The notes: generated from the letters alone by a model not told the origin. A stretch of DNA of 64,000 bases from Planctomycetota bacterium (GCA_965223545.1 OZ245006.1:4160001-4224000); one strand, 5' to 3'. Shown: positions 1 to 14,106, counted from the stretch's first letter. Numbers and translations are program-made.

Positions 1-573
1 ATCGCCGTCCCCGAGGTCGTCGGTCCCGAGGCCGTCGCCGCCGCTCTCGAGCGCGTGCGCCCAGAGGGGCGGGTGTCGATCCTGGAACCCTCGCGGCCCG
101 GTCGCCGACCGCCGCCGAAGCGCGATGCCCCGACGATCTCGGCCGCCGAACTGCGGGACGGTCTTCGCCGATCGGGCGTGCTCGAGCGGCTCGTGGCAAA
201 GGTCCAAACTACGACCGACCCTGCAGGCACGTGCCGTGAGCTGCTGGGGCTAGCACTGGTTTTCACGGCGGGCAGTGCTAGTCGATCGGCAAGGAAGCGA
301 AGCGAACTCGCTCGGGGGCTTGTCGCATACCGAGGCCCAAACGCGCCCGTTGAGCTGTTGGTGCTGATCTTGCACTTGGCCGCAGCATCCCCATGGAACA
401 TCGGCGGCGCGCTTCGAGCCAAGAGGCTGCCCCGACTGATCAGCGGAGGGCTCGACCTGGCGCTTCTCGAGGACGAGGCGCCGTCGCTCGATGGTGCGTG
501 CGCTCGGTTGCTGGCGGCTTGGGAGCGGGATGGACGGAAAGGTGCGCAGGTACGAGCAGGAGTGAGCAGATGA
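1..573 (+). CDS. Hypothetical protein, 5' truncated by the window edge
   Basis: Frame 1 is open from base 1 (IAVPEVVGPEAVAAALERVRPEG...). Its TGA overlaps the ATG of the next gene (ATGA at 570-573). Confidence 0.6.
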   Translation: MAVPEVVGPEAVAAALERVRPEGRVSILEPSRPGRRPPPKRDAPTISAAELRDGLRRSGVLERLVAKVQTTTDPAGTCRELLGLALVFTAGSASRSARKRSELARGLVAYRGPNAPVELLVLILHLAAASPWNIGGALRAKRLPRLISGGLDLALLEDEAPSLDGACARLLAAWERDGRKGAQVRAGVSR

Positions 574-1520
574 CGACCAATGACGACAACCGAACGTTGA
601 CCGACGAAGAAGTGCAGGAACTCCGACAACTGAAGGAACTCCTGCCTGAGCAGACGTACGGAGGCTACACAGCTCATCCGGCAGCAGAGCTGTTCCCTGG
701 ACTTCCAGGTGACGAGCTAGGGGAGCTGGCGCAGGACATCGCGAAGAACGGGCAGAGGTTCCCGATCTTCTTGTGGCGCGGGCAGGTCTTGGATGGCCGG
801 AGTCGGCTTTCAGCGTGCGCGCAAGTTGGGGTGGAGCCGTGGACGGAGGATGTCACCGAGCAAGTCGCGGACCCGTTCGAGTTCTCGGTTTCGGCCAACC
901 TTCACCGCCGGCACCTGACGATTGGCCAGCGGGCCGTGATCGCCCAAGTTCTGGAACAGCGCTACAAGGAGCAAGCTGCGTCCGCCAGCACTCGGGGGGC
1001 GTTGGGTGGAAGGGGTCGCAAGAAAGCTGTTGTCAAATCTGACAACAGCTTTCCTGGCGAGGCGAGTAGCGCGAGCAATGGGCCTGCGAACCATTCCCGG
1101 GCCAGAGCGGCAAGACGCATGCGCATCAGTGAGGGGGCAGTTGCTCAGGTCAACATGATCAAGGAGGGTGCGCCGGATCTTCTTCCCGAGGTCGCATCAG
1201 GAGGGCGCTCCATCAACTCCGCCTTGACCGAGATGAGAGCTCGCGAGCCACAAGGCCAACCGAAACGGAGTGCCAAGCGTCGCGCTGAGCATCGCAAGAA
1301 GGCCGCCCCCGCGACCACCGGCGTCGTCGCTGATGAGGTGATGCTCAAGGTGATCGATCGCTTTCGCGAGTCGGCTGAGTCACCCGGTACGAAGCTGCAG
1401 GCCGCTGAGGAGTTCTTGCGCTTCCTGCGCAAGTCGGCGGAGTTGGATCCCGCCGTCGTGGCGCTCCTCGATGTTGCGTTGCCGCTGCTGGCGCGCGCTG
1501 GTGCTGAGACCAGCGCGTGA
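570..1520 (+). CDS. ParB/Srx N-terminal domain protein (phage/plasmid type)
   Basis: HPAAELFP..ELAQDIAKNGQRFPI...VLDGRSRLSAC...SANLHRRHLT is the phage-type ParB-like signature. The ATG at 570 is coupled to the upstream stop. Confidence 0.8.
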   Translation: MTTNDDNRTLTDEEVQELRQLKELLPEQTYGGYTAHPAAELFPGLPGDELGELAQDIAKNGQRFPIFLWRGQVLDGRSRLSACAQVGVEPWTEDVTEQVADPFEFSVSANLHRRHLTIGQRAVIAQVLEQRYKEQAASASTRGALGGRGRKKAVVKSDNSFPGEASSASNGPANHSRARAARRMRISEGAVAQVNMIKEGAPDLLPEVASGGRSINSALTEMRAREPQGQPKRSAKRRAEHRKKAAPATTGVVADEVMLKVIDRFRESAESPGTKLQAAEEFLRFLRKSAELDPAVVALLDVALPLLARAGAETSA

Positions 1521-1695
1521 CCCGCGCCCGGTTTCATCGGGGGGAAACGGAGCCCAATGTGGGTGTTCCTGTAGCCCGCTTTGACGGTGAGAAGCGGTCG
1601 GGTTTGCTGACGGAGGATTCTCTGGGTGCGTGGATGGGCCGCAACACCAGTCGTCAATTCAGGTTATGCCTCCTGAAACGACAAACGTTGCGATT

Positions 1696-1730
1696 TTGAG
1701 GATCCTCACTTGAAGTTGAGGATCCTCACT
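1696..1730. promoter_or_regulatory. Tandem palindromic operators, TGAGGATCCTCA x2 with a 20-bp period
   Basis: TTGAGGATCCTCACT at 1696-1710 and 1716-1730, each holding a perfect 12-bp palindrome, just upstream of an RHH gene. Confidence 0.75.
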
Positions 1731-1746
1731 CATAACCTGCTTGGAG

Positions 1747-2229
1747 ATGGCACGAACGAACTTCTACATCAAGGACGAGGTCCGCGAGCGCATGCGGGAG
1801 GCGAGTCACGTGAACTGGTCACGGGTGGCCTCCGCAGCGATCGAAGCCAAGCTCGCGGAGCTGAACCGCGAGAAAGAGATAGCTATGACCGATCAGCAAG
1901 TCGTCGACCGCATCCGGGCGAGCAAGAACATGCAAGAAGACACCGACCAGAAGGAAGGATTCGACGCGGGCGTCCAGTGGGCAAAGCTGGCGGCCGAGTG
2001 GCGGCACTTCGAGCGCCTCAGCAAGATCAACTCTGCCGACTCGCCTGATGACTACCCAGGTGACTGGCTGTGGGAGACCGTCATCGGCCCGGACGAGGGC
2101 AGCCGACCTCGTCGCGACGACGTGGAGGCGCTGTTCGGCGAGGGGATCGCGGATCCGTCGCACTCGTTCGTGGAGGGCTTCATCGAGGGCGCCCTGACCG
2201 TCTTCGAGAACGTCAAGGAGCAGCTCTAA
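1747..2229 (+). CDS. Ribbon-helix-helix (Arc/CcdA/VapB-like) regulator fused to an unknown C-terminal domain
   Basis: MARTNFYIKDEVRERMREASHVNWSRVASAAIEAKL has the RHH strand-helix-helix pattern. Confidence 0.7.
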   Translation: MARTNFYIKDEVRERMREASHVNWSRVASAAIEAKLAELNREKEIAMTDQQVVDRIRASKNMQEDTDQKEGFDAGVQWAKLAAEWRHFERLSKINSADSPDDYPGDWLWETVIGPDEGSRPRRDDVEALFGEGIADPSHSFVEGFIEGALTVFENVKEQL

Positions 2230-2235
2230 GCCGTG

Positions 2236-2595
2236 ATGATCGATCAGCAAGTCCTCGACCGCCTTCGGGAGAGTAAGAGCATGCAAGAAGACCTCGACCT
2301 GCACGCCGGGTTCCACTCTGGCGTCGACTGGGCCAAGCAAACGGCCGAGTGGGTGCATCTAGAGCGCCTTAGCAAGATTTGCCCAACCGACCTGCCCGGC
2401 GATGGCGCCGGAGATTGGCTTTGGAGCGAGATCATGGCGCCAGGAGAGAGTCGGAGTGGCAGTGTTCCCCGCGAGGAACTTGATGCGTGCTACGGCCTTT
2501 CCGAGAACGCTCACGATGCTTCGCATTTGTTCTTGGCCGGATTCATCGAAGGCGCCGAGGCCGTCTTTGCGAACGTCAAGGAGCAGATCATTTAG
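2236..2595 (+). CDS. Tandem paralog of the C-terminal domain of 1747-2229, without the RHH domain
   Basis: MIDQQVLDRLRESKSMQED...WAK..AEW.H.ERLSKI...GFIEGA..VF.NVKEQ aligns with the upstream protein from its internal Met at 1885. Confidence 0.8.
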   Translation: MIDQQVLDRLRESKSMQEDLDLHAGFHSGVDWAKQTAEWVHLERLSKICPTDLPGDGAGDWLWSEIMAPGESRSGSVPREELDACYGLSENAHDASHLFLAGFIEGAEAVFANVKEQII

Positions 2596-2720
2596 GGCTC
2601 CCGGGAGCGAGGTTGGGGCCGCCGACACGCGGTCCCCTGCTGTGAGGATGTGGTAGCTCATCGCTACGGACTGCGATGAACTCTCGCGGCAGCTTGTTCT
2701 GACTCAGCTCTCGGCATGCC

Positions 2721-2758
2721 GGGGCCGCGCACACGTGCAGGGTGCGCGGCCCCTTTTT
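2721..2758 (+). terminator. Intrinsic terminator
   Basis: GGGGCCGCGCAC / GTGCGCGGCCCC 12-bp stem followed by TTTTT. Confidence 0.75.
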
Positions 2759-2790
2759 GGTTCCGACGCCGGCTCCTACAGCGACGACGG

Positions 2791-3429
2791 CTACTGAGCG
2801 GCAAGCGCATCTACAAGTTTCGCGGCGGCCAGCACGTTCGCTGCGAACATGCCGCCGAGAGCCCCGGCCAGCCTTGCTGCAGACGCTCGTGCTGCCTTGC
2901 GCTCGTTCTCGAGGCCTTCGATGTAGTCACGGAGGCTCCAATGGATCTCAAACCCTGGAACTTCGCGAACGGGGTCCAGCAGGAACCAGCTCTTTGCAAG
3001 GACGATAAAGCGGTCGGCCTGGATCCCCCCAGGTCCGCCCGACATGTACAGAACCCGGAGCCCATCGACTCCTGAACCCGGGATGGGCCGGCTAGAGGCA
3101 CGCTCGTCGCCGGGACGTCGGTCGACGAACTGGACGCACTGACTCTTCACCAGCCAGGTGATCTGCTTGTAGCGCGCAGAAAAGCCCTCAGCGGCCGCGT
3201 AGCTGTGCAGTGCACCAGACAGGCCCAGTAGTAGCTGGACCCCGATCTGAATGTTGAGGGTCCATTCCGCAACGGTTGGCCAGCTCGCTGCCTTGGTGCT
3301 CACCAAGATCGTTCCGAGCAAGGTGACGGTGCCACCCGCGAAGAGAGCCCAACTCAGCACCCGTACTAAGGTGCTCAGCCTTGGTGGGCGCTTTGCTTGC
3401 TCGCTCAACCCGCTGCTCATGTCGCTCAT
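2791..3429 (-). CDS. Hypothetical membrane protein (cargo, opposite strand)
   Basis: 212-aa ORF with two N-terminal hydrophobic segments and a C-terminal hydrophobic tail. Confidence 0.55.
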   Translation of the reverse strand: MSDMSSGLSEQAKRPPRLSTLVRVLSWALFAGGTVTLLGTILVSTKAASWPTVAEWTLNIQIGVQLLLGLSGALHSYAAAEGFSARYKQITWLVKSQCVQFVDRRPGDERASSRPIPGSGVDGLRVLYMSGGPGGIQADRFIVLAKSWFLLDPVREVPGFEIHWSLRDYIEGLENERKAARASAARLAGALGGMFAANVLAAAKLVDALAAQ

Positions 3430-3479
3430 TGGTTGCCTACGCTAACGTCTCGGGGGTGGCTTGACCCACACCCTACCGG

Positions 3480-3720
3480 TCCACGAAAGCTCTGGCGCTC
3501 TCAGGCGAGCCAAGAGCGAACCGAGCGACTTCGTGGACTGATCGACGAGCCAAGGGAAGGCGACCCAAGCAGCGACTGGCTCAGCGGTCTGGTCGCCGCC
3601 ATCCCGCAGCTCGAGCGCGTGATCGATGAGGACTCACCGATCGAGGTGGCGTTCTTCGAGTTTGTGATCGCGGGCTTTCTAAGCGGTGCAGTGCCCGAGG
3701 CGATGGAGTGCGAGGAGTGA
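3480..3720 (+). pseudogene. Possible third, 5'-truncated copy of the duplicated domain
   Basis: W...A.....ERL, DWL and AGF..GA motifs occur in the same order as in the two upstream paralogs. No convincing start codon; 5' coordinate approximate. Confidence 0.35.
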
Positions 3721-3848
3721 GCCGGTCCCGGTCGAAGACGATTGTTGTTGGCAATCTCGCGGCAAAGTCTCGTCAATAACTCTTATAGTCGGCTTTTTCG
3801 GGGTCGCGGGGTCTACAACTCGCTTGTTGGTTGTGGCATATCAGACGC

Positions 3849-6593
3849 ATGCCGACCGTTGAGCAGCTGCGACTTGACATTGACGCGCGGGGGGCTGCGC
3901 GAGGCGGACGCGAGGCAGCCCGAGCCACCGATCGAGTTGCGGCGAGCGCGAAGCGCGCCGATCGCGCCGTCAACAAGTTCGACGGTGAGCTGCGCACGAT
4001 GGGCCAGACGACTCGCTCGCTGCTCGGCCCGTTGCTCGGTCTGGGAGGCGCGTTCACCGGTATCGCCGCCGCACGCTCGGCATTCGGCACGCTCTCGAGC
4101 TTCGACGGTGGGGTTGCGTCGCTGCGTGCGCTGACCGAGGCGACATCCGCGAGCGCCGAGCTAGCCACAGCGGAGATGGTCGAGCTCGAAGAGGCCGCGC
4201 GCGGCGTAGGCGCTTCCACGCGCTTCTCTACAAACGAGGCGATCACGGGCCTCGAGGGTCTGCGGCGTGCTGGTCTCTCGACCCGAGAGGCAATCGCGGC
4301 CATTGGACCTGCTGCGGACATCGCGGTCGTTGGCAAGCTAGGCTTCGCCGAAGCGGCCGATCTAGCAGCTGCGACGATGCGGCAATTCCAACTGCCGGCC
4401 GGGGAGATCCGAGTCGCGCTGGAGCAGCTGAACGCGGCCGCGGTGCGCTCGAACACCGGCGTCGCGGAGCTGAAAGAAGGCTTTCGAGTTGCTGCCCCCC
4501 TCGCGCATCAACTCGGTGCCGACGTCGCCGAGGTCGGCGGCATCCTCGGCATACTCGCAGACTCTGCGATCAAGGGCTCGGAAGGCGGAACCAAGTTCGC
4601 GTCATCGATGGCGGCGTTGCTGGCGCCAAGCCGTGAGGCTCAAGAGATCCTCGATGGCGTTGGCCTTTCCGCCGATCGAATCGCCGCCTCGCTTGGCGAT
4701 CCCGCGCACTTGTTCCGTGAGTTGGGGCAGGCAGGACTCTCGGCCTCTGAGTCAGTTCGCATCTTCGGCCGCGAGAACGCCGCCGCCGCCGCCATTTTGC
4801 AAGAGAACGCGGACCGTGCGATCGAACTCACAGCCGCGATCCGAGAGTCGAGCGGCGAGATGCGCCAGATGGCGGAGACCAGCGCCGACTCGCTCCAGGG
4901 GAAGGCCACGGAGCTCGAGAGCGCCATCGAGGCATTGACGATCGCGCTTGGTCAGAGCGGGCTCACAGCCGCGCTCACGTCGACGGTCGAGGGCATGACC
5001 GCCGTCGTCCGCGAGTTGGGCGGGCTCGACAAGTCGATGGCGTCCGCGAGCCTCACTGTGTCGACGACCGCCGACGCCGTGCGGACTCTTGCGCTTGTTC
5101 TTGGTGGTGCAGGGCTCGTGGCCGCACTCGGGAAAGCCCAGGCCGCGATGACGGCTCTGGACGCGGCGACGAAGATCAACCCGGTGCTCTTGTGGGGGAC
5201 GGCGATCGGCGTCGCAGCGTCAACCGTTCTCGAGTTCACCAGCAACGCGGCCAAGGCAGAAGAGGCTGCGGCCCAGCTCAATGCCGAGCTTGCGCGACTC
5301 GACAAGCAACGTGAGACCAACATCGCGGGCTTCCTGGGCAAGTTGGAGCCTGACCTGTCCGGTGTGCGCAGCGGGGCAGACATCTTGCAGGATGTGCTCG
5401 GAAGCAGTGTGCTGCCGAGTCCGGACGAGTTTCGCCAGCGCTTGCAGGAGGGGCTGGGGCAATCGCGCGAGATCATCGGCGAGGAGATCCGGGGGCTCCA
5501 ACAGACGTTGGACAACCTGTTCGAGGCGCTGGGTGATCGCTCGGTAAGCGCGCGTCAGCAGGACGCGTTTCGCGAAGGCATCGAGCAGACGAAGGCAGAG
5601 ATCGAGGGCCTCATCGCAAAGTACGATGAGCTGACGCAGACGAACGCTGCCGCTCTTCAAGCGGAGTTCGATCGGCAGAAGGCGATCGCTGACGCCGAGC
5701 AGGCGCGACAAGCCGCGGTCGCCGCAGCTGAGGCCGAGAAGGCGGCGATCGAGGCGACTGCAACCACGTTGCAGGAGATCACGGACCAGCTTCGGCTCGA
5801 GGCCGAGCTTGCGGGGTTGAACGCGGCCGAGCGCGCGCGGCTCCTGGCCACTCGCCAGGTCGAAGAGATCATCGCTGCCTCAGGCATCACCAGTGAGGAG
5901 GAGCGTAACCGCCTGCTCAAGGAGCAGATCGATCTCGTCAACGAGTTGATCGACCTGCGGTCGCAACGTGAGGAGGAAGCCCGGCGCGCCGACGACGAGA
6001 GGTTTCAGGCGAGCGTGCCGCAGCTTCGCGGGACCTACAGCGAGGTCGGTCAGCGGCCGCTCTCACAGGAGAGCGAACTCGCGTTGGGGCAGGTCGGCAA
6101 ATCCGCTGGCCGGGCGATCTCTGAGGGTCTTTTGGAAGTCATCGAGGGTTCCGGTGATCTCGAAGACATTGGCAAGTCGATCCTCCGACAGATCTCGGAG
6201 AGCGCTTACGAGAACTTCGTCACGAAGCCGCTTGCCAACCTGGGACAGGAGCTCCTGATCGCGCTGGGCGAGGGAGTCGGAAACGCGCTCTCGGGCAACA
6301 CGTCTGCAAGCTTGCTCGGCGGGAGCCCCGCATCGTCTTCCTCGAACCCCTATTCCGGATCGCAGGGTGTTTCGCCGCCGGCGCGCGCCTTGTTCGAGCC
6401 CCGCGTGCCTCTCCCGTTCTCTGGAGCACCGACGTTCCCGGATGGCTCTCGCGTTGGCGCGTCTCCGCAGGGCCAGCCAAGTCGCAGCACCGCTCCTACG
6501 ACCATCATCGTGCAAAGCATCGACCAGGCTGTGCGTACGAAACGCCAGATCGATGAGCAGCGCCGCCGCGACATCATGGGGAGGCGTCGGTGA
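3849..6593 (+). CDS. Phage tail tape measure protein, TP901 family
   Basis: N-terminus VEQLRLDIDA; core with T(R)FSTNEAITGLEGLRRAGLS, SNTGVAELKEGF..AAP.A, GILADSAIKGSEGGT and IFGRE; long Ala/Glu-rich helical C-terminal half. Confidence 0.9.
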   Translation: MPTVEQLRLDIDARGAARGGREAARATDRVAASAKRADRAVNKFDGELRTMGQTTRSLLGPLLGLGGAFTGIAAARSAFGTLSSFDGGVASLRALTEATSASAELATAEMVELEEAARGVGASTRFSTNEAITGLEGLRRAGLSTREAIAAIGPAADIAVVGKLGFAEAADLAAATMRQFQLPAGEIRVALEQLNAAAVRSNTGVAELKEGFRVAAPLAHQLGADVAEVGGILGILADSAIKGSEGGTKFASSMAALLAPSREAQEILDGVGLSADRIAASLGDPAHLFRELGQAGLSASESVRIFGRENAAAAAILQENADRAIELTAAIRESSGEMRQMAETSADSLQGKATELESAIEALTIALGQSGLTAALTSTVEGMTAVVRELGGLDKSMASASLTVSTTADAVRTLALVLGGAGLVAALGKAQAAMTALDAATKINPVLLWGTAIGVAASTVLEFTSNAAKAEEAAAQLNAELARLDKQRETNIAGFLGKLEPDLSGVRSGADILQDVLGSSVLPSPDEFRQRLQEGLGQSREIIGEEIRGLQQTLDNLFEALGDRSVSARQQDAFREGIEQTKAEIEGLIAKYDELTQTNAAALQAEFDRQKAIADAEQARQAAVAAAEAEKAAIEATATTLQEITDQLRLEAELAGLNAAERARLLATRQVEEIIAASGITSEEERNRLLKEQIDLVNELIDLRSQREEEARRADDERFQASVPQLRGTYSEVGQRPLSQESELALGQVGKSAGRAISEGLLEVIEGSGDLEDIGKSILRQISESAYENFVTKPLANLGQELLIALGEGVGNALSGNTSASLLGGSPASSSSNPYSGSQGVSPPARALFEPRVPLPFSGAPTFPDGSRVGASPQGQPSRSTAPTTIIVQSIDQAVRTKRQIDEQRRRDIMGRRR

Positions 6594-6880
6594 CCGACGG
6601 ACAGAACGCGACGCTGCAGGACGCGGTCACGACGATCGTCGGGCAGCTCATGGCGTGGGCCGCGGAAGTGCGCAAGCTTCGACCCGCTGAGCGCGACGGT
6701 CGCATTGCGGAGATGCGGCAGCGGATGAGCGTGTTCGCCGCGGCTCAGCACCAAGCGCTGGAGGAAGCCAGTGCAGCCGGCGACAGGGAGGGCATCGCAA
6801 GCCACTCGCTCATGTCGTCCATGGCCGAGCGACTCGCGGAACAGCTGGGCGACTGGCTCGATCAGCCCAATCGAAACTGA
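6590..6880 (+). CDS. Hypothetical protein
   Basis: GTGA overlap with the TMP stop and GGAGG upstream; 96 aa, helical. Confidence 0.6.
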   Translation: MTDGQNATLQDAVTTIVGQLMAWAAEVRKLRPAERDGRIAEMRQRMSVFAAAQHQALEEASAAGDREGIASHSLMSSMAERLAEQLGDWLDQPNRN

Positions 6881-6922
6881 GGGCCCATAAGGCCAATTGA
6901 GGAAACGTCAGGACGAGACACG

Positions 6923-7909
6923 ATGCCACGACGCCAGCAGACCGTTGCACAGGCGCGCGCCGAGCAGGCACGCGAAGCCCAAGCCGATCGAGACCGCCAC
7001 GACGCGGCCAAGGAGCGCGACCTTCGCGCGCGCGCATGGGTGCACTGGGGCCAGGGCTCGGCACGCCTCGCTCTCGCGGAGGGCGACACGAGCTCGGCCA
7101 GCTTCTTCGCCAGCAAACTCGCGGCGCCGCACCGCGAACTCACGGCCGAGCTGGCGAGGATTCGCGACGATTCGCGGCTGACCGCCGAGGGCAAGCGCGA
7201 TGCTGTCGCGGCGGTGGCCAAGCGGATCCGTGCGCGCTTCGACGACAGCGGCGATCCGCTGCACGTTGTGCGGCGCAAGATCGAGCAGCACGCGGCACAG
7301 GCCAAGGACGCGACGGCCGCCCTCCAAAGTCTCGTGCGGCAGCGAGCTCTCGGAGTTCGCCGGGAGAACTTCTACGATTCGGCTCGAGCGATCGCTGACT
7401 CCGAAGCGTTCGCGCGGCTCGCTGCGAAGGAACAGGTGGCGCGCATCGCCGATGCCGAAGCATCCGGCGACGTCCGCACCTTGTTGGCTGCCGCTGAGGC
7501 CTCGGCGTGGTCCGGTGTCGTCGAGGAGTGCAGGGAGCGCACCATGCGGACGCTCACGTCGTTGGTCGCCGGCGAGGAGGCGCGCGAGGTTGAGACCCTG
7601 TCGGCACAAGCGACCATCGCCGAGCAACAGCTCGCCGCAGCGCTTGGTGGCCTCGAGCTGCTGGCGGCGGCACCACGGCTCGGGCTCGGCAAGGGGCGTG
7701 ATGGCGACGACGTTCTCGCTGACGCCAGCCTGGTGAGTGCGGGGTACCTCCTCAAAGCCGACGCGGAAGGCGTGTCGCCCGACTTGCTCGATCCCACACC
7801 ACTGACTTCCGAACGGCGGCCGCAGACGGCGGAAGATCGCTTGCAGGAGCACTACGAACGACAAGTCGAGCGTCAGGTGGGCCCCGCCGTTGGCGCAGAC
7901 GCGCCGTGA
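6923..7909 (+). CDS. Hypothetical alpha-helical protein
   Basis: 328-aa Ala/Glu/Arg-rich ORF, coupled to the next gene. Confidence 0.65.
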   Translation: MPRRQQTVAQARAEQAREAQADRDRHDAAKERDLRARAWVHWGQGSARLALAEGDTSSASFFASKLAAPHRELTAELARIRDDSRLTAEGKRDAVAAVAKRIRARFDDSGDPLHVVRRKIEQHAAQAKDATAALQSLVRQRALGVRRENFYDSARAIADSEAFARLAAKEQVARIADAEASGDVRTLLAAAEASAWSGVVEECRERTMRTLTSLVAGEEAREVETLSAQATIAEQQLAAALGGLELLAAAPRLGLGKGRDGDDVLADASLVSAGYLLKADAEGVSPDLLDPTPLTSERRPQTAEDRLQEHYERQVERQVGPAVGADAP

Positions 7910-8358
7910 CTGGCAAGGAATCTTCAATCGGAGGTTACACAGCGATGACAGCACAGCAGAAGTACGACGCCATGCGCGCGCACGCGCCCTCACAACCAGT
8001 CCCTCCTGACGGGAAGCCTCTGGCCGGTGAAGTGGTTTGGGACCTCGCGCAAGCGCGTTGGCGACGGCTTCCGGCGGTTGATGCCAGGGAAGGCGTGGCC
8101 GTCGGCATCTACGCACGCAAGAGCCCGAGCGGAGTCACGACAGCCAACCCCGCTGGCAAGGCTTGGGTGCGCGACGTCGCATCCGCAGCGACCTACTTCG
8201 TCGATGCGAACGACGCCGAGGAGATGATCGCCGCTGGCCTCGCCGAGATCGTCGACGCGCACGAGGAGCGCGAGCGGGCCGAGGCAGCCGTCGCCGCGGA
8301 AGAGGCGGCCGGCCGCGATGCGATGGCGAATGTTCGCGCGGCACGAGGAGGACCGTAG
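7906..8358 (+). CDS. Hypothetical protein
   Basis: GTGA coupling; alternative ATG at about 7945 after GGAGG. Confidence 0.6.
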   Translation: MTGKESSIGGYTAMTAQQKYDAMRAHAPSQPVPPDGKPLAGEVVWDLAQARWRRLPAVDAREGVAVGIYARKSPSGVTTANPAGKAWVRDVASAATYFVDANDAEEMIAAGLAEIVDAHEERERAEAAVAAEEAAGRDAMANVRAARGGP

Positions 8359-8547
8359 GTGCCCGACGAGCCGGAGAGGCTACGGCGCTTGAGTCCGCGG
8401 CGGGGTGTCGCCCAGTTCATGAGTGTCGAGGAGCTGGTTGAGGAAATGCGGCGGCGCTATCCCGACCAGTTCTTCCGCGGCTCCGAGCTCGAGTGGCGTC
8501 AGCGAACGACTGTTGTCGCGCGGAGGCGCGCGAGGCGCTGGCGGTGA
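8359..8547 (+). CDS. Small hypothetical protein
   Basis: GGAGG upstream, abuts the previous stop, and its TGA overlaps the next GTG. Confidence 0.45.
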   Translation: MPDEPERLRRLSPRRGVAQFMSVEELVEEMRRRYPDQFFRGSELEWRQRTTVVARRRARRWR

Positions 8548-9014
8548 GCGACCGCGACGAGCGGGGCAGGTTCAAGCCGGGCTGCCGCGGCGGTCCGGGC
8601 GCGGGCAACGTCCGGTATGTCACCGTGATGCGGGCCGCGATTCGCGAGGCGGTCAACGCCGGCGAGGTGCGGGAGGTGCTGCGAGCGATGCTGACGGCCG
8701 CGAAGAAGGGCGACACGGCCGCGTCAAAGTTGCTTCTCGAGTACGGCCTGGGGAAGCCGACGGCGATCGCTGCGGACCCCACAGGCGTCGAGCTGCCGAA
8801 GCTCGACAGCGTCAGCGCATGCGTCGAGGCCGGCGAGCGGCTCACCGCGGCCGTCTTGCGTGGTGAGCTCGCAGCGGCCGATGCCGAGCGGCTGGCTCGG
8901 ATCATCGACGTCGCCCAGCGCGGGCTCGAGGCGATGGAGGTCGGCGCACGGCTTGATGAGATCGAGGGCGCGCGCGTCTTCTTGAAGCTCGAGGCGGGAG
9001 GTCTTCGTGCCTAG
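8544..9014 (+). CDS. DUF5681-like / terminase small subunit-like protein
   Basis: RDERGRFKPGCRGGPG ... AKKGDTAASKLLLEYGLGKP resembles the GRF.PG..G / GD..A.KLLLE..G.P pattern of DUF5681 proteins. Confidence 0.6.
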   Translation: MSDRDERGRFKPGCRGGPGAGNVRYVTVMRAAIREAVNAGEVREVLRAMLTAAKKGDTAASKLLLEYGLGKPTAIAADPTGVELPKLDSVSACVEAGERLTAAVLRGELAAADAERLARIIDVAQRGLEAMEVGARLDEIEGARVFLKLEAGGLRA

Positions 9015-9351
9015 TTGGCGGCAGCGGCTGCGTCGCTTGGGGCCGCAGATCGATGACCTCGAGCAGAGCGCATGGTGCGTTCGCGCGGCTCGCGGCGTGC
9101 CCTCCTCGAGCGATCGCGAGGAGAGTTGGCGGCTTCGCATGGACTTGTTCGGCGTGATGGCGTTCCTGGACTACCCGCACGAACCAAACCACGAACCTGC
9201 TCCGGACGTCGCCGAGGCCACCGCAGCGGTTCTGGGCCTCGATTGGCCCGAGCACGAGCCCCACCCGCGCGGCTTGACGCTGCAGCAGCTGCGCGGCCAC
9301 CTGAACGTCCTACGGATGGAGCTACCGCACCATGAAGACGGCCACGCCTGA
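9007..9351 (+). CDS. Hypothetical protein
   Basis: GGAGG then GTG, overlapping the previous stop. Confidence 0.5.
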   Translation: MPSWRQRLRRLGPQIDDLEQSAWCVRAARGVPSSSDREESWRLRMDLFGVMAFLDYPHEPNHEPAPDVAEATAAVLGLDWPEHEPHPRGLTLQQLRGHLNVLRMELPHHEDGHA

Positions 9352-9538
9352 TCGTCGCGACCGGACATCGGTCGCTCTCCCTCGCCGTCTCCGCGACGAG
9401 TTGCACCGGACCGCAGCATCAATCTCAGAGGCCCGTGGCGGCAGCCGCGTCGCGTTGGCCGAAGTCATCGCGCTCGGCGTCCGCGAGCTGAGTCGACGCT
9501 GCCCGTCGTGCTGGCGACCACCCGAAGCGCATAACTGA
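9332..9538 (+). CDS. Small RHH-like DNA-binding protein
   Basis: TSVALPRRLRDELHRTAA...LAEVIALGVREL strand-helix-helix pattern; a terminator follows. Confidence 0.5.
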   Translation: MKTATPDRRDRTSVALPRRLRDELHRTAASISEARGGSRVALAEVIALGVRELSRRCPSCWRPPEAHN

Positions 9539-9553
9539 ACTCACTCCAGGAGT

Positions 9554-9602
9554 GCGGGCGTCGCCTTGGCCTCGGCGGTCGGGGCGGCGCCCGCTTTTTC
9601 TT
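9554..9602 (+). terminator. Intrinsic terminator ending the TMP operon
   Basis: 18-bp stem with several G-U pairs (9554-9571 / 9577-9594) followed by TTTTTCTT. Confidence 0.8.
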
Positions 9603-9611
9603 GCCAGACTC

Positions 9612-9640
9612 TTGACACGCCAGCGCCGTTCTGATAACGC
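9612..9640 (+). promoter_or_regulatory. Sigma70-like promoter
   Basis: Perfect TTGACA, 17-nt spacer and TG-n-TAACGC (weak -10), directly after the terminator. Confidence 0.45.
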
Positions 9641-9677
9641 TCATTGCGTCCACGCTGAGATCGGCTCGGCACTCGGA

Positions 9678-9755
9678 CAAAGAATCGGCCCCCGGGGGTG
9701 CGCTAACACCCACCGAGAGCCTAACCCGCAAAGTGAGGAAAGCACGATGCAGGCT
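9678..9755 (-). ncRNA. Candidate SymR-like cis-antisense RNA over the RBS and start of ORF 9747
   Basis: Minus strand reads CAT...TTCCTCAC...GTTAGGCTCTCGGTGGGTGTTAGCGCACCCCCGGGGGCC GATTCTTTG. The hairpin loop GTGTTAGCGCAC resembles the SymR terminal hairpin as I recall it. Ends approximate. Confidence 0.35.
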
Positions 9756-10028
9756 GAGCGTAAACCTAGCGCTCTCGTTGGTTTCGGCCAACTGTTGGCT
9801 TCGCGTCTCGAGGAACTCGAGCGCAAGCACCCCAACCCCGACCACGCCGCGCGGATCGAGGAGCTCGTCAACGAGCTGGCGAGACGCTTTGAGATGCATC
9901 CGGAGATCGACGCGAGCACCTCGGCGCCGGCGTGGCGCCTTGTCGACACGATGACCGCACACGACATCGCGCGGCTTCGGGTTCGCACCGTCACGATGCT
10001 GCAGCCGATCGAGGGAGGTTCGCGATGA
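9747..10028 (+). CDS. Hypothetical protein
   Basis: GAGG RBS, ATG at 9747, ATGA coupling to the recombinase. Confidence 0.6.
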   Translation: MQAERKPSALVGFGQLLASRLEELERKHPNPDHAARIEELVNELARRFEMHPEIDASTSAPAWRLVDTMTAHDIARLRVRTVTMLQPIEGGSR

Positions 10029-11023
10029 CCGCCATCGCACTCGCGGCACCCGCTCCCGACCCGCGCGACGTTCCTGCGGTGCTTCAGCGCGAGCTGGGCG
10101 AGGACTGGTTGCGCGGCAAGAGCCCTGCGACCATCGCGGCATACCGCGGCGACCTTCGGCAGTTGGCGCTCTGGCTCGAGCTGCCCGGCGGAGAACAGGC
10201 CACGCTCGGCTACGTGACGCGACTCAGCTCTGTCGCGTTGAATGGGCTGGCTTTGCGCTGGCGCGGCGCGATGACCGAAGCGGGCCTGTCCAGCTCGACC
10301 ACCAATCGCAGGCTCGCATCGCTTCGTTCAGCGGTCAGGTTCGCGCGCATGCTCGGCATGACGTCGGCGACGATCGATGTCGCTGGCGTCCGACCTGAGC
10401 CTCGACGCGACAGCCGAGGCCCGACCGCAACCGAATTTCGAACGATGCTCGAGGCGCTCGAGCGGCGGCCCGATCACGCGCGCAAGTTGCGCCTTCGAGC
10501 GATGCTGCTTTGCCTTGGCGTGCTTGGTTTGCGTCGTGGCGAAGTCCTCGGTCTCGACCGTGAACACTGGGCCGACGGTCGCCTCATGGTGAAGCCGAAG
10601 GGTAGGCGAGAACGTCATCCCCTGACGGTGCCCCCGCTGGTGGCAACGGCGCTCGACCGATGGTGTGCGTCGTGGCCTGCGGAGGATGGGCCGCTGTTCG
10701 TCACGCTGCGCGGACGCACGACGGGTGCACGACTGTCGGCGACGGCGTTTGCCGGCTCGCTCAAGGTGCTTGGTCGCCAGGCAGGGCTCGAGCGTCCAGT
10801 GCGGCCACACGGCTTGCGACACTGCGCCGTCACGTGTGCGCTCGACACGCGCGACGGCGACTTGCGCGCCGTGAGGCGCTTTTCACGCCACGCGTCGCTC
10901 TCGATGCTGCTCGTCTACGACGACGATCGAACCGACACGTTCGGCGAGATTGCGCGCGCCGTCGAGGCCGCGCTCGTTCCGCAGGCCGTCGTCGAAGCGA
11001 CGAACGCGAAGGGAGGCGCGTGA
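10025..11023 (+). CDS. Tyrosine recombinase (XerC/D-like)
   Basis: SPATIAAYRGDL and SSTTNRRLASLRS in the N-domain; catalytic GLRRGE, K, HGLRH, SRH and Y (LLVYDD). Confidence 0.92.
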   Translation: MTAIALAAPAPDPRDVPAVLQRELGEDWLRGKSPATIAAYRGDLRQLALWLELPGGEQATLGYVTRLSSVALNGLALRWRGAMTEAGLSSSTTNRRLASLRSAVRFARMLGMTSATIDVAGVRPEPRRDSRGPTATEFRTMLEALERRPDHARKLRLRAMLLCLGVLGLRRGEVLGLDREHWADGRLMVKPKGRRERHPLTVPPLVATALDRWCASWPAEDGPLFVTLRGRTTGARLSATAFAGSLKVLGRQAGLERPVRPHGLRHCAVTCALDTRDGDLRAVRRFSRHASLSMLLVYDDDRTDTFGEIARAVEAALVPQAVVEATNAKGGA

Positions 11024-11517
11024 TGGGCTGGGTCGGTGCGCGTGAACTCACCCCGGAAGAGATGGCGAAGATCAGCGAGCGGAACCGCGACCAGCTTGGA
11101 CCGCACGCGCACGAACAGCTGGCCGAAGCTCTGTTCGATGAACTCCGCGAGGTGTCGGACGCGTCGCGCGGCGACGTTGATCCCGGCACCTTCGTGCTGG
11201 CGGCGCTGGCCCGTGCGGCGCCAGGCGTCGCGAGCGGACTTGACTTCGCGATGAACTACTACCGGCATGAGCCCGAGGTGCTCAACGTCCTGGTGGGCGC
11301 TTTAACGCTGGCCGGCGACTATGAGTACATCCGGGGCAACCTGGCCGATGCGGACCCCGCGATTCGCCGTGCCCAACAGTCGGCCCTGTGGATGCTCAAG
11401 GGCATCGAGGCGGCTTTCCCAGCCGATCAGTTCGAGCCCAATCCTGGCGAAGCGCTGAGCCAACACGAGGCGCGTTTCCGAATCGACCATCAGCGTGCCG
11501 GCGGGGCCGACTTCTGA
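11023..11517 (+). CDS. Hypothetical protein
   Basis: GGAGG RBS, TGATG coupling, protein-like composition. Confidence 0.65.
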   Translation: MGWVGARELTPEEMAKISERNRDQLGPHAHEQLAEALFDELREVSDASRGDVDPGTFVLAALARAAPGVASGLDFAMNYYRHEPEVLNVLVGALTLAGDYEYIRGNLADADPAIRRAQQSALWMLKGIEAAFPADQFEPNPGEALSQHEARFRIDHQRAGGADF

Positions 11518-11987
11518 TGTGCGGCGGCGCGTCGGTCCGTGTTCCGGCGCGTCGCCACCCGCTCGCGCCGCATAAGCGCGATTCAGCCTTGTCGCTCGCC
11601 GGGCGGCGGCGAGGGCGCATTCGGCGCTCGCTGTTGCGCCGCGGACCGCGCTTCGCCATGGCGCCGAATGCAGCAGCCAGACGCTGCCCATCGCAGAAAG
11701 CGAAAAAAAGTTGGGGCGCACTCGTCGGCCGCCCGAGCGAACGGGTGCAACGGCAACTCTGTGCCAACCGGGAACGGGCGAGAAGGGGGTAAGTGCCTTG
11801 AGCGTGTCGGCCTACGTCACTTGGCGACGTCCTACGCCATTCCGCGTGGGCCCGTGCCGCGGCAACGTCGTGTCAAGAAGAGGATCAAACTCAACACCGA
11901 AGACTCGGCAAGACGTCGGTGGACCACTCTAGACGCGCCTTTGCGTGGCCTGGCGCTCTTGCCCTGAGCGAGGCAGTTTGAACTTCC

Positions 11988-12197
11988 ATGATCTCGATCT
12001 CACCCGCACAGCAGTTGCTCACTGTCGACCAGGTTGCGGTCGTCCTGCAGATCTCACGTCGCACGGTGTTTCGGCTGTCCGCCGATCCACGGAGTGGCTT
12101 CCCGCCCAAGTTGCGCATCCGGGGCTCGACTCGGTTTCGCAAATCGGACGTCCTTCGCTTCTGCCAGACTGGGGGCAGGGAGAGCGTCGAGAGCTGA
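11988..12197 (+). CDS. AlpA/excisionase-like helix-turn-helix protein
   Basis: LLTVDQVAVVLQISRRTVFRL...FPPKLRIRGSTRFRKSDV; TGATG-coupled to the integrase. Confidence 0.85.
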   Translation: MISISPAQQLLTVDQVAVVLQISRRTVFRLSADPRSGFPPKLRIRGSTRFRKSDVLRFCQTGGRESVES

Positions 12198-13522
12198 TGG
12201 GTCGGAGCGGCACGAATCCGTACCGCCGCCGAGGCTCGCCGTATTGGCAGATCCTCTACCGCGATGCTGAAGGACGGAAGCGACGCGAATCGACAAAGAC
12301 CGGTGACATTGTGATCGCTCGCGCAATCCTCGCGGAGCGAGTCAAGGAGGCTGCGCAAGGGCGTGTCGGGCATCGTGACGAATACGCGGCTACGCGCCGG
12401 GCGGACGTCGACGATCTGATCGAAGCGTTCTGTGAGGCCCGTCTGGGGCGAGGGATCACGCAGAAGCGGGTCAGCGATCTAGCTCGCTTCCTGCGTTCCG
12501 TGTGCTCGCGGGCCAGCGTGCGCCGTCTGGACGACGTGGACGTGGCTCGCGTGGAGCGAGTCTTGGCGACGATCCGACGGGAGCGTTCCGTCTGCACCCG
12601 GGACCACCATGCAGCCGCCCTACGAACGTTTGGCTTATGGCTCGTTCGCAGTGATCGTTGGCCAACCGATCCCTTCGCAGCGATCGAAACGCACACGCGG
12701 ACCGAAGCCGATCGCAAGTTCGACCGCCGAGCGCTTCGGCTCGAAGAGCTGGAGCTGCTTGCCGCAGCCGCCCCGCAGCGAGCAGTGCAGCGCTGGGTCG
12801 CGACGCACCCTCCCGGGTCGGACGACGATGAGGCCAAGCGGGCCTCGACGATCGAGGAACTCGAGCGGCGTGGTAGAGAGCGGGGACTGCTGTACTTGTT
12901 CCTCGCGTACACTGGCATGCGTCGAACCGCCTGTCAGCGGTTGCGATGGCGGGACGTCGTTCTCGACGGCGAACACCCTCGCGTCGTGATCCGGGCAGAG
13001 ACACAGAAGGGTCGGCGAGATCACTTCGTGCCGTTGGCTCCTTGGTTGGTGAGTGCGCTACCCGAACGCCGCCGCGAGCGTGCGCTCTGGGGTCGCCACC
13101 CGAATGGTGGTCCGCTGTCGGGGCCGGTGAGAGACAGCGACCCGCTGTTTCATGTGCCCGACAAGCTCGCGGAGCTCTTGCGCCACGACGCCGAGTTTGC
13201 GGGTTTGGGTGATCGAGACCCCACGTGGGATCGCCTCGATGCCCACGCGCTGCGCAAGTCCTGCGCGACGCTGCTGGTGGAGGCCGGAATGCCGCCCGCG
13301 ATTGCCCAGAAGGTGCTGGGGCACAAACGCATCACCACCACGATGAAGTACTACGCACGCATCGGCGACGACCTCGTACGTTCCGAGTTGGCTCGCCTGC
13401 CTGCTCCCGTGTGCACTCCCGTGTGCACTCAACCAGTTCCCGGTGAGTCAACGCATGGCACACCAGGACACACCGAGGGCGACGACGATCCGCCCCAAAC
13501 CGATGAAACGAAGACTGGATAG
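12197..13522 (+). CDS. Tyrosine integrase with an N-terminal arm-binding domain
   Basis: YWQILYRDAEGRKRRESTKT arm-binding region; YTGMRR, K, HALRK, LGH and TTMKYY catalytic motifs. Confidence 0.93.
   Translation: MGRSGTNPYRRRGSPYWQILYRDAEGRKRRESTKTGDIVIARAILAERVKEAAQGRVGHRDEYAATRRADVDDLIEAFCEARLGRGITQKRVSDLARFLRSVCSRASVRRLDDVDVARVERVLATIRRERSVCTRDHHAAALRTFGLWLVRSDRWPTDPFAAIETHTRTEADRKFDRRALRLEELELLAAAAPQRAVQRWVATHPPGSDDDEAKRASTIEELERRGRERGLLYLFLAYTGMRRTACQRLRWRDVVLDGEHPRVVIRAETQKGRRDHFVPLAPWLVSALPERRRERALWGRHPNGGPLSGPVRDSDPLFHVPDKLAELLRHDAEFAGLGDRDPTWDRLDAHALRKSCATLLVEAGMPPAIAQKVLGHKRITTTMKYYARIGDDLVRSELARLPAPVCTPVCTQPVPGESTHGTPGHTEGDDDPPQTDETKTG
13404..13430. repeat. 12-bp tandem direct repeat, candidate arm-type site
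   Basis: CTCCCGTGTGCA twice plus CTC, in the integrase 3' tail after the catalytic Tyr. Confidence 0.55.
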
Positions 13523-13635
13523 CCCAATCGGGCGCGAAGTGGCACACTGTGTCACGGATGTGGAGAGGACTACGCGATTCCTTCGAATCCCGCAGGGCCC
13601 ACGATCGCGCGGGGCTGGGAACGGAAGCGAGAGCG

Positions 13636-14106
13636 ATGTACTTCTGGGACATTCAAGCACTCCGGCGCGACCTCTCGTCGAGAGCCACTTCGCCGCCGGG
13701 CATCGGCTATCTCTCTGCGTTGCTGCTCGTTCCTCCACTGGTCCATTTCACCGTGGATTTCATTGTTGGATTCGACCAGGTGTACGCGAGTCGCCCTAAC
13801 GTCGTTGATAGCACGTCAGAGCTCGCGTACGTCGCGGTGATTCTCGCAGGTCTTTGGTACTGCTGGATGAGAAAGCGCACTCGGGACGACTTCCTGCTGA
13901 GGGCGACGTGCTTGGCGTGGCCGTGCTTCGTACGGGTCCACGTGGTGTTGCTGCCTTCGGTCGTCCTGATTCCGATGGTGGTTCCCCAGTGGTTCACCAG
14001 TGAGTCCAGCACCTGGTTCTTCTATCTGCCGGACTATGGCGGAGCAGCGGCGGTCGGGTTCATGACCGGGAATCACATGGCAGGGCTGTCTTCGGTGGAA
14101 GCGTAG
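13636..14106 (+). CDS. Hypothetical integral membrane protein
   Basis: MYFWDIQALRRDL start and four hydrophobic segments. Confidence 0.65.
   Translation: MYFWDIQALRRDLSSRATSPPGIGYLSALLLVPPLVHFTVDFIVGFDQVYASRPNVVDSTSELAYVAVILAGLWYCWMRKRTRDDFLLRATCLAWPCFVRVHVVLLPSVVLIPMVVPQWFTSESSTWFFYLPDYGGAAAVGFMTGNHMAGLSSVEA

Follow-up and report, generated by a model that had tools for sequence, protein, structure and literature searches.

The window analyzed here is a 64,000-nucleotide stretch of the chromosome of a Planctomycetota bacterium (G000:C1:4160001-4224000, C1 being the chromosome and C2 a second contig of the same assembly; positions given without a contig count from the first letter of the window). 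Its left part belongs to a mobile element that encodes a phage tape measure protein (TMP) as its sole recognisable virion gene and that is very probably a satellite of a 77.5-kb prophage residing in the same chromosome. A repeat search delimits this element as a unit of 14,662 bp that runs from C1:4158920 to position 13601 of the window. ARAGORN and Rfam place the end of a tRNA-Met(CAT) gene 1.06 kb left of the window; the last 20 bases of this gene form the left attachment site (attL; G000:C1:4158920-4158939, 1.08 kb left of the window), and an exact copy of them forms attR (13582-13601, + strand). Because the 20-bp 3' end of tRNA-Met is repeated exactly at 13582-13601, the element is complete at this tRNA gene. 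An earlier reading of the window, made from its letters alone (the sequence-only reading), had placed the element at 1..13555, which is corrected here. It had also set beforehand, as a test, a leftward extension in search of attL and of a head-tail module: attL was found, no head-tail module lies left of the window, and a single open reading frame (ORF), for a 455-aa protein with tandem helix-turn-helix (HTH) motifs, separates attL from the window start. GC content in 2-kb bins is 0.63-0.69 within the element versus 0.67-0.73 across the 60 kb to its left. Two tandem 10-bp repeats with 12-bp spacing (13409-13430, + strand) are matched by a pair about 70 bases inside attL; these two places hold four of the 14 copies of the 10-mer in C1, and the repeats are candidate arm-type sites for the integrase. 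The stretch is not an assembly artefact, because contigs of four sequencing runs cover it with no differing letters listed; these runs stem from no more than two samples of a single study, which may be the source data. Runs with a small share of the stretch hold only short scattered pieces of it, and no RNA run is listed among those that contain it.

The tmp gene (3849-6593, + strand, ATG start) encodes a 914-aa TP901-type TMP (TIGR01760 tape_meas_TP901, E 7e-40; PF10145, E 6e-29), in agreement with the sequence-only reading, which had also recognised the + strand operon that tmp opens. The ORFs from 3849 to 9538 are nearly contiguous, with successive gaps of -4, 42, -4, 0, -4, -8 and -20 bases, and are followed by an intrinsic terminator-like hairpin (9554-9602, + strand), in which an 18-pair stem at 9554-9594 precedes a T run. 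The predicted energy of this hairpin is -43.8 kcal/mol (z -4.9), and none of 200 shuffled sequences was equally stable. Most of the ORFs between 6590 and 9538, all on the + strand, have no family at all: a 96-aa protein coupled to tmp by a 4-base overlap (6590-6880), a 328-aa protein (6923-7909), a 150-aa protein (7906-8358), a 62-aa protein (8359-8547), a 114-aa protein (9007-9351) and a 68-aa protein that resembles ribbon-helix-helix (RHH) proteins by eye only (9332-9538). A structure search within 6590-9351, which the sequence-only reading had proposed, covered two products. The 328-aa protein is predicted to be all-helical at low confidence (single-sequence model, pLDDT 55) and gave no Foldseek match, while its Atlas matches were mostly unnamed clusters with low recognition; a protein search returned only the query, and 339 genomes of the class yielded one weak match of 73 residues. 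The other product modelled, from the GTG-initiated ORF 8544-9014, is a 156-aa helical protein (pLDDT 91) whose best structural matches are generic helical hairpins (Z 7.0).

This last protein is the one that the sequence-only reading had called DUF5681/TerS-like, and the DUF5681 match holds for some of its relatives and not for the protein itself. Its family comprises 2706 relatives, and 28 of 75 aligned relatives match DUF5681 (PF18932) at E <= 0.01. The protein itself matches neither DUF5681 nor any model of the small terminase (TerS), has no specific structural match, and found only itself in a word search. Relatives sit upstream of a gene for the large terminase (TerL) in two of 20 fetched loci, in which no portal or capsid was detected. 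Family and context thus make it a candidate small terminase.

Apart from the TMP, no element ORF matched a capsid, portal, TerL, tube, chaperone, distal-tail, baseplate or lysis model in Pfam, PHROGs or NCBIfam, searches that do not exclude remote homologues, and none had a tblastn match (E 0.01) to the virion genes of the prophage or of C2. The absence of recognisable head, tail and lysis genes beside the TMP, which the sequence-only reading had asserted, is thereby upheld.

We then compared the element TMP with other TMPs. Among 7999 scored candidates drawn from 5.8 billion proteins, its best relative is the 901-aa TMP of the 77.5-kb prophage (E 1e-117, 95% coverage); the next has E 2e-21, and these are the only two matches at E <= 1e-20. 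None of the phage records searched covers 80% of the query. The two TMPs share 40% identity over their full length, and this identity is distributed in blocks: 69 of 80 residues (86%) at the N-terminus, 38 of 64 at residues 746-810, 49 of 74 at the C-terminus and 213 of 623 in the middle. The ratio of nonsynonymous to synonymous differences per site (pN/pS) follows the same pattern, at 0.17 for the N-terminus, 0.41 for 746-810, 0.38 for the C-terminus and 0.74 for the middle, with pS between 0.49 and 0.69 across blocks. An N-terminal pN/pS of 0.17 at a pS of 0.49 fits selection on the protein rather than a fresh copy. Further, the two ends score 346 (first 80 residues) and 236 (last 75 residues) against the prophage TMP, and at most 87 and 43 against 20 other TMPs, a set that includes the TMP of the C2 phage and leaves out that of locus L016. 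A recent copy of the prophage TMP was considered and rejected, as the DNA of the ends is only 72-76% identical and synonymous sites have diverged. We infer from these comparisons that the element maintains a TMP that fits the tail parts of the prophage. The lambda TMP is reported to work with chaperones and to have its C-terminus in the tail tip (PMC10721106), and a structural account of the gene transfer agent RcGTA places the TMP end near the iris and peptidase of the megatron protein (PMC7296036); the hub of the prophage may therefore not be the partner of the TMP C-terminus.

The prophage (G000:C1:7775442-7852941) lies at a tRNA-Asn gene between end repeats of at least 45 bp. Its genes include TerS, TerL, portal, scaffold, capsid, adaptor, tail terminator, chaperone, TMP, hub and integrase, together with two distal-tail-like genes and a megatron-like gene, and its baseplate is of RcGTA type. 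A 392-aa gene that precedes the chaperone carries only the name 'minor tail protein'; we take it to be the tube by its position. No sheath was found among the scanned tail genes, and the tail tip is like that of gene transfer agents. By its gene content the prophage is thus a complete-looking, temperate siphophage, and the bounded, satellite-like element of the sequence-only reading has a fitting helper in its own chromosome. The tail region also holds a Doc-like toxin gene, and a search of viral contigs with the hub found no relative. A second phage genome is present in the assembly: C2 is a 39.6-kb contig of an HK97/lambda-like siphophage with portal, protease, capsid, tube, TMP, a GpJ-like tip and RecT. 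As a helper it was rejected, its TMP scoring at background for both ends of the element TMP.

A separate line of evidence connects the two elements. The prophage carries a VIPR-like locus made up of a Vipr-like gene (C1:7790776-7791342; top PDB match SUSP1 Vipr, weak at E 0.015), a second gene and pentamer arrays. These CGC-NN arrays, which follow the Vipr-like gene, are the strongest of their kind in C1. Eleven tracts were delimited, of which two could together form one guide; each was scored against C1, on either strand, by the published rule (10.64898/2026.04.26.720920), with targets called from local guide scores. With a one-base skip, the best C1 match of three of the 11 tracts falls inside the element, which makes up 0.18% of C1; with skips of 0, 2 or 3 bases, none of 33 did. 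Two of the three predicted targets lie in tmp: that of tract 7 at 5765-5824 (- strand; 42.6 bits versus 31.4 for the next match in C1, 29/40 read bases) and, as a weaker call, that of tract 9 at 6153-6212 (+ strand; 32.7 versus 28.5 bits, 24/40 read bases). The third, of tract 11, lies at 10891-10953 (- strand; 41.4 versus 28.5 bits, 31/42 read bases) in int1, which encodes an Xer-like recombinase. The prophage's own tmp scores 18.0 bits with tract 7 and 21.8 bits with tract 9, versus 42.6 and 32.7 in the element. For tract 1, a weak predicted target within the gene of the 62-aa protein (8485-8538) is the second-best match in C1, at 27.2 bits. In tracts 1, 7, 8, 9 and 11 the skip falls on codon position 3. 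Unit shuffles reached the element score in 0 of 300 trials each for tracts 1, 7, 9 and 11, and in 8 of 300 for tract 8; none of 36 shuffled guides had its best C1 match in the element, and tracts 7 and 11 outscored all 12 of their own shuffles. Under full-length ungapped scoring that includes the tails, only tract 11 stands alone at the top, with tract 8 tied. Of the five tracts with candidate targets in the element, two are firm, one is fair and two are weak. On these scores the guides of the prophage are predicted to repress tmp and int1 of the element.

Tracts 2 and 3, merged, have no clear target. They share a run of identical dinucleotides with tract 6 (L007:11340-12940) and seemingly read one site; scans of C1, C2 and 43 loci of other genomes did not reveal it. 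At C2:18488-18529 tract 5 reaches 31.4 bits, versus 26.7 for its best match in C1, and is possibly a guide against a rival phage.

Several further genes of the element lie outside the tmp operon. The 455-aa tandem-HTH protein (gene start G000:C1:4159206, 3' part at 1-573, + strand) matches HTH_29, HTH_36 and GntR on residues 1-265, the HTH_29 match lying just over its cut-off, and is probably a replication initiator (Rep). It is followed by a 316-aa ParB-like protein (570-1520, + strand; phrog_21315, E 1.5e-23; ParB-like phrog_12047, E 1.3e-5). A 160-aa protein of RHH type (1747-2229, + strand) was recognised from its alignment, with Atlas leads to RHH_12 (14-18% of members) and CcdA (29%) and a weak VapB match below cut-off. 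Its family is the second one shared with the prophage, where a 40% identical gene lies directly after the VIPR array (L007:12958-13443). In the element it has a 119-aa paralog without the RHH part (2236-2595, + strand; 58% identity) and a diverged third paralog (3397-3720, + strand; 23% identity, 10 invariant columns across four sequences). The three paralogs could be decoys of a helper regulator. On the opposite strand, at 2791-3429, lies the gene of a 212-aa protein without family that shows two hydrophobic stretches by eye, has a 73% identical copy in a tRNA-Ser remnant described below, and may be defence or exclusion cargo. PADLOC defence models matched none of 13 element proteins.

Downstream of the terminator, a 93-aa protein without family (9747-10028, + strand), preceded by a purine-rich site, is coupled to int1, whose product is an Xer-like tyrosine recombinase of 332 aa (10025-11023, + strand; PF00589, PF02899). 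A 164-aa protein with no family above cut-off (11023-11517, + strand) and a 69-aa AlpA/excisionase-like HTH protein (11988-12197, + strand; HTH_17, E 2e-7; TIGR01764 just under cut-off) follow. The last gene, int2 (12197-13522, + strand), encodes a 441-aa tyrosine integrase (PF00589, E 1e-17) that is likely the tRNA-Met integrase. Catalytic residues are present in both recombinases, those of int1 having been read by eye. The relatives of int2 in genome records are 35-42% identical, several lie near tRNA-Met, and of the 19 genome loci that hold them 18 are labelled Planctomycetota and one Brocadiaceae, on which grounds we call the element and its prophage planctomycete. In two relatives (L153, L155) tRNA-Met stands just after int2 on the opposite strand; in the element it is at the far end and in the same direction, and the att core is therefore inverted relative to the integrase in comparison with those two. 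No primase or helicase match was obtained for any element ORF with Pfam, PHROGs or NCBIfam, no solo guide array was seen, a sigma-70 promoter scan returned 0 sites, and the tRNA was the sole match of the Rfam scan. Across the right boundary, an ORF at 13549-14106 overlaps attR and reads like a membrane protein, its true start probably lying after attR; a host CotH kinase-family protein with EF-hand motifs follows at 14258-16009.

Relatives of the element's genes outline a common island chassis. Members of the ORF 8544 family are present in 50 of the 339 genomes of the class and in 33 of 90 others of the family. Several of the 20 fetched loci show the order TerS-like gene, int1-like gene, AlpA, int2, some of them beside tRNA-Met. 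Within the bacterial family, five loci (L108, L109, L113, L114, L124) display a chassis of ParB-methylase, DUF5681-related gene, Xer-like recombinase, primase or helicase, AlpA and integrase. No TMP was detected in the related chassis loci; we therefore read the element, from gene order and content, as an instance of this chassis to which a TMP has been added and in which another Rep is in use. The 455-aa Rep-like protein itself found one weak match outside the source genome among the 339.

Two sister remnants lie in the same chromosome. One, at tRNA-Ser (G000:C1:6909400-6918400), is split by insertion sequences, holds N-terminal TMP pieces that are 74-92% identical, and retains copies of ORFs 2791 and 3397 at 88% DNA identity. 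The other, at tRNA-Gln (G000:C1:7922083-7923670), spans 1.56 kb, has a 29-bp repeat and contains pieces of Rep with internal deletions that are 58-60% identical. Elsewhere, PF10145 is matched in 49 of the 339 genomes, and most of 23 TMP loci compared by their local proteins (20 with PF10145 and three others) look like ordinary tail modules by layout, several being short or not called. A separate 17.4-kb element at tRNA-Leu in another genome (G318:C1 ~1.28-1.30 Mb; L067:387-17790) combines an integrase, an HTH protein, TerS, an S49 protease and a 695-aa lambda-type TMP. None of its 15 scanned ORFs matched a capsid, portal or tube model, and its genome gave no second TMP match, so that no helper TMP was found there.

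Together, these observations suggest how the element might exploit the prophage. Upon helper induction, int2 and the AlpA/Xis-like protein would excise the element, and the tandem-HTH protein would start its replication; the DUF5681-related protein would then route element DNA to the large terminase, portal and capsid of the helper. Helper chaperones would load the element TMP onto the RcGTA-type baseplate, where the helper tube would coat it, the helper-like ends permitting assembly and the tail length remaining nearly unchanged. Through its divergent middle, the element TMP would evade a block that an uncharacterised protein of the tmp operon imposes on the helper TMP, as Rta does for PLE11, and the helper would answer with VIPR guides that repress tmp and int1. 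Those parts of the scheme that the DNA supports are the att bounds, the intact TMP and recombinases, the helper-matching TMP ends, the complete-looking helper and the guide matches. That the element TMP enters hybrid tails is probable, and of the roles for the TMP weighed since the sequence-only reading, the data agree best with substitution into helper tails; with proteins of 914 and 901 aa, an altered tail length is an unlikely purpose. We give even chances to the whole chain of excision, packaging, hybrid tails, escape from a satellite-made block and VIPR silencing, and hold at a little under that the combined picture of a helper-satellite pair in which the TMP keeps the helper ends and swaps the middle, hybrid non-contractile tails are built with the chaperones of the helper, and helper guides hit tmp while sparing the helper's own copy.

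Several findings weigh against this account. The Vipr assignment consists of the weak PDB match and the arrays; all three guide matches in the element are imperfect; tract 9 is outscored by one of 12 shuffles and lies inside the spread of the best genome-wide scores of shuffled guides; and for six tracts the element offers no clear target. A TMP was found in none of the 20 ORF 8544 loci (tblastn with 21 TMP queries) and in none of 21 int2 loci of at least 8 kb (from 46 loci, overlapping the set of 20). No sister element with the same TMP turned up in viral or metagenome contigs, so that a single genome carries the case. The evidence for a TerS is indirect, a comparison of the element with the prophage found no common DNA outside tmp that might serve as a packaging site, and no protein can be named as the inhibitor of the helper TMP. 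Finally, no excision or circle joint was seen in the contigs of the four runs, which run through attR, although such contigs drop rare forms.

Other explanations of the lone TMP would account for parts of these data. The benefit may arise at DNA entry instead of assembly: the divergent middle would let particles with hybrid tails inject cells that exclude the helper TMP, for example helper lysogens, or use other membrane partners. The location of the divergence in the middle of the TMP (213/623 identical) agrees with this, a temperate helper would make lysogens the most useful recipients, and TMPs are the presumed targets of Ltp-type exclusion proteins (PMC4465916). Relaxed constraint alone would nevertheless be expected to make the middle diverge, and no exclusion gene turned up in the prophage, where no search was aimed at one; we consider a benefit at entry unlikely. 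It is distinctly unlikely, in our view, that the TMP is a poison or decoy whose helper-like ends trap helper baseplates and chaperones in dead tails and so protect the population, the element itself using helper tails for any transfer. No chaperone or baseplate gene was detected beside the TMP, the related islands without a detected TMP imply that the chassis seemingly needs none, and two guides aimed at tmp are what one expects of a helper-harming gene. Such a decoy would not need to be full length, within 13 residues of the helper TMP, or to conserve both ends, and deletion of tmp in PLEs is reported to cut transduction by 96-99.9% (PMC12987554).

A third view, of a decayed prophage or of an island with a passenger TMP and no present role, is very unlikely. 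It would explain why the TMP-bearing form is known from one genome only with its tRNA-Ser and tRNA-Gln sister copies broken, and why no excision appears in the four-run contigs, and the lower N-terminal pS (0.49 versus 0.64) allows past recombination with the prophage lineage. It is at odds with intact att sites, two recombinases with catalytic residues, open and coupled ORFs, the lack of detectable relics of head or tail genes, an N-terminal TMP pN/pS of 0.17 and helper guides that match the element.

A satellite that substitutes its TMP into the tails of the resident prophage, as we prefer to read the element, would tie helper, satellite and counter-defence together in one chromosome, and would offer a compact model of tail hijacking with non-contractile tails. 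The conserved ends and divergent middle point to residues that assembly requires; if the reading is correct, the conserved blocks map the assembly interfaces of siphophage TMPs, and one orphan protein of the element is a new tail-assembly inhibitor. How a satellite TMP is chosen over that of the helper is stated as open in the PLE report (PMC12987554). The guide array of the helper independently names its parasite and suggests that tmp is worth silencing, and it would extend the conflict between VIPR and satellites beyond enterobacterial and Pseudomonas cases. New here are the planctomycete lineage of the pair, the temperate helper, the TMP carried alone and the guides aimed at tmp. A literature search of incomplete coverage returned no paper on planctomycete phage satellites.

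Phage-inducible chromosomal islands (PICIs), including SaPIs, are elements of about 15 kb without capsid genes that carry a tyrosine integrase, an AlpA-like regulator, a TerS-like gene and a primase-helicase module. The element resembles them in its size, its lack of a recognisable capsid gene, its integrase and its AlpA-like regulator, has a candidate for the TerS-like gene, and differs from them in having a TMP, a second, Xer-like recombinase and no detected primase-helicase, although related chassis islands have a primase or helicase. The sequence-only reading had proposed an undescribed satellite type; that claim is not supported in view of published satellites that bring their own TMP, namely PLEs (PMC12987554), EPIPs (PMC12822802) and the F5 satellites of SUSP1 (bioRxiv 10.64898/2026.10.15.759431), all described only in 2025-2026.

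EPIPs, as reported from Mycolicibacterium aichiense (PMC12822802), are elements of about 11 kb with a TMP, a small terminase and a resident prophage as helper. The element shares the TMP and, as proposed here, the helper type, and has a candidate for the small terminase. They use a serine integrase, encode a head-tail adaptor and stopper, and form tails longer than those of the helper; the element has two tyrosine recombinases and a predicted unchanged tail length, and its ORFs gave no hidden Markov model (HMM) or tblastn match to an adaptor or stopper. With PLEs, and PLE11 in particular, the element would share the use of its own TMP in helper-built tails, which its genes suggest here and which mass spectrometry and deletion established for PLEs, whose TMPs were found in hybrid tails (PMC12987554). 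In the same report the host is Vibrio cholerae, the helper is the contractile-tailed ICP1, and the TMP is accompanied by a chaperone (and by BhuB in some). Of the PLE-type tmp and tac pair, the element has tmp and no chaperone match, either by HMM or to the chaperone of the helper. The PLE TMP is described as 20% identical to that of its helper with a length difference of 95 aa, versus 40% overall, 86% at the N-terminus and 13 aa for the element.

The closest likeness is to the F5 satellites, whose definition asks for one or more tail-module genes (TMP or baseplate) between copies of an att site (10.64898/2026.10.15.759431), an arrangement that the element displays. Like F5 as described there, it is integrated, att-flanked and capsid-less and has a TMP. 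VIPR is reported to restrain TMP-bearing F5 satellites, and the element resembles these also in being targeted by helper VIPR guides (here by computation only), with a skip at the wobble position and a recombinase gene among the targets. F5 satellites are described with a baseplate protein as well, an E. coli host, a replication gene only rarely (2.7%) and the obligately lytic helper SUSP1; by contrast, the element has a co-resident temperate siphophage as its helper, a TMP alone, two guides aimed at tmp and no solo guide array that we could find. The VIPR-like locus of the prophage, in turn, is like the VIPR systems on record (10.64898/2026.04.26.720920) in its Vipr-like gene, second gene and pentamer arrays that decode to a satellite with a one-base skip; the scaffold of this predicted system reads CGC, versus GGY on the coding strand of known VIPR. 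We assign the element to no known group, because each differs from it in a defining feature (host and helper, integrase type or replication module). In its predicted mode of action, it would work like the PLEs and, most of all, like the F5 satellites of SUSP1.

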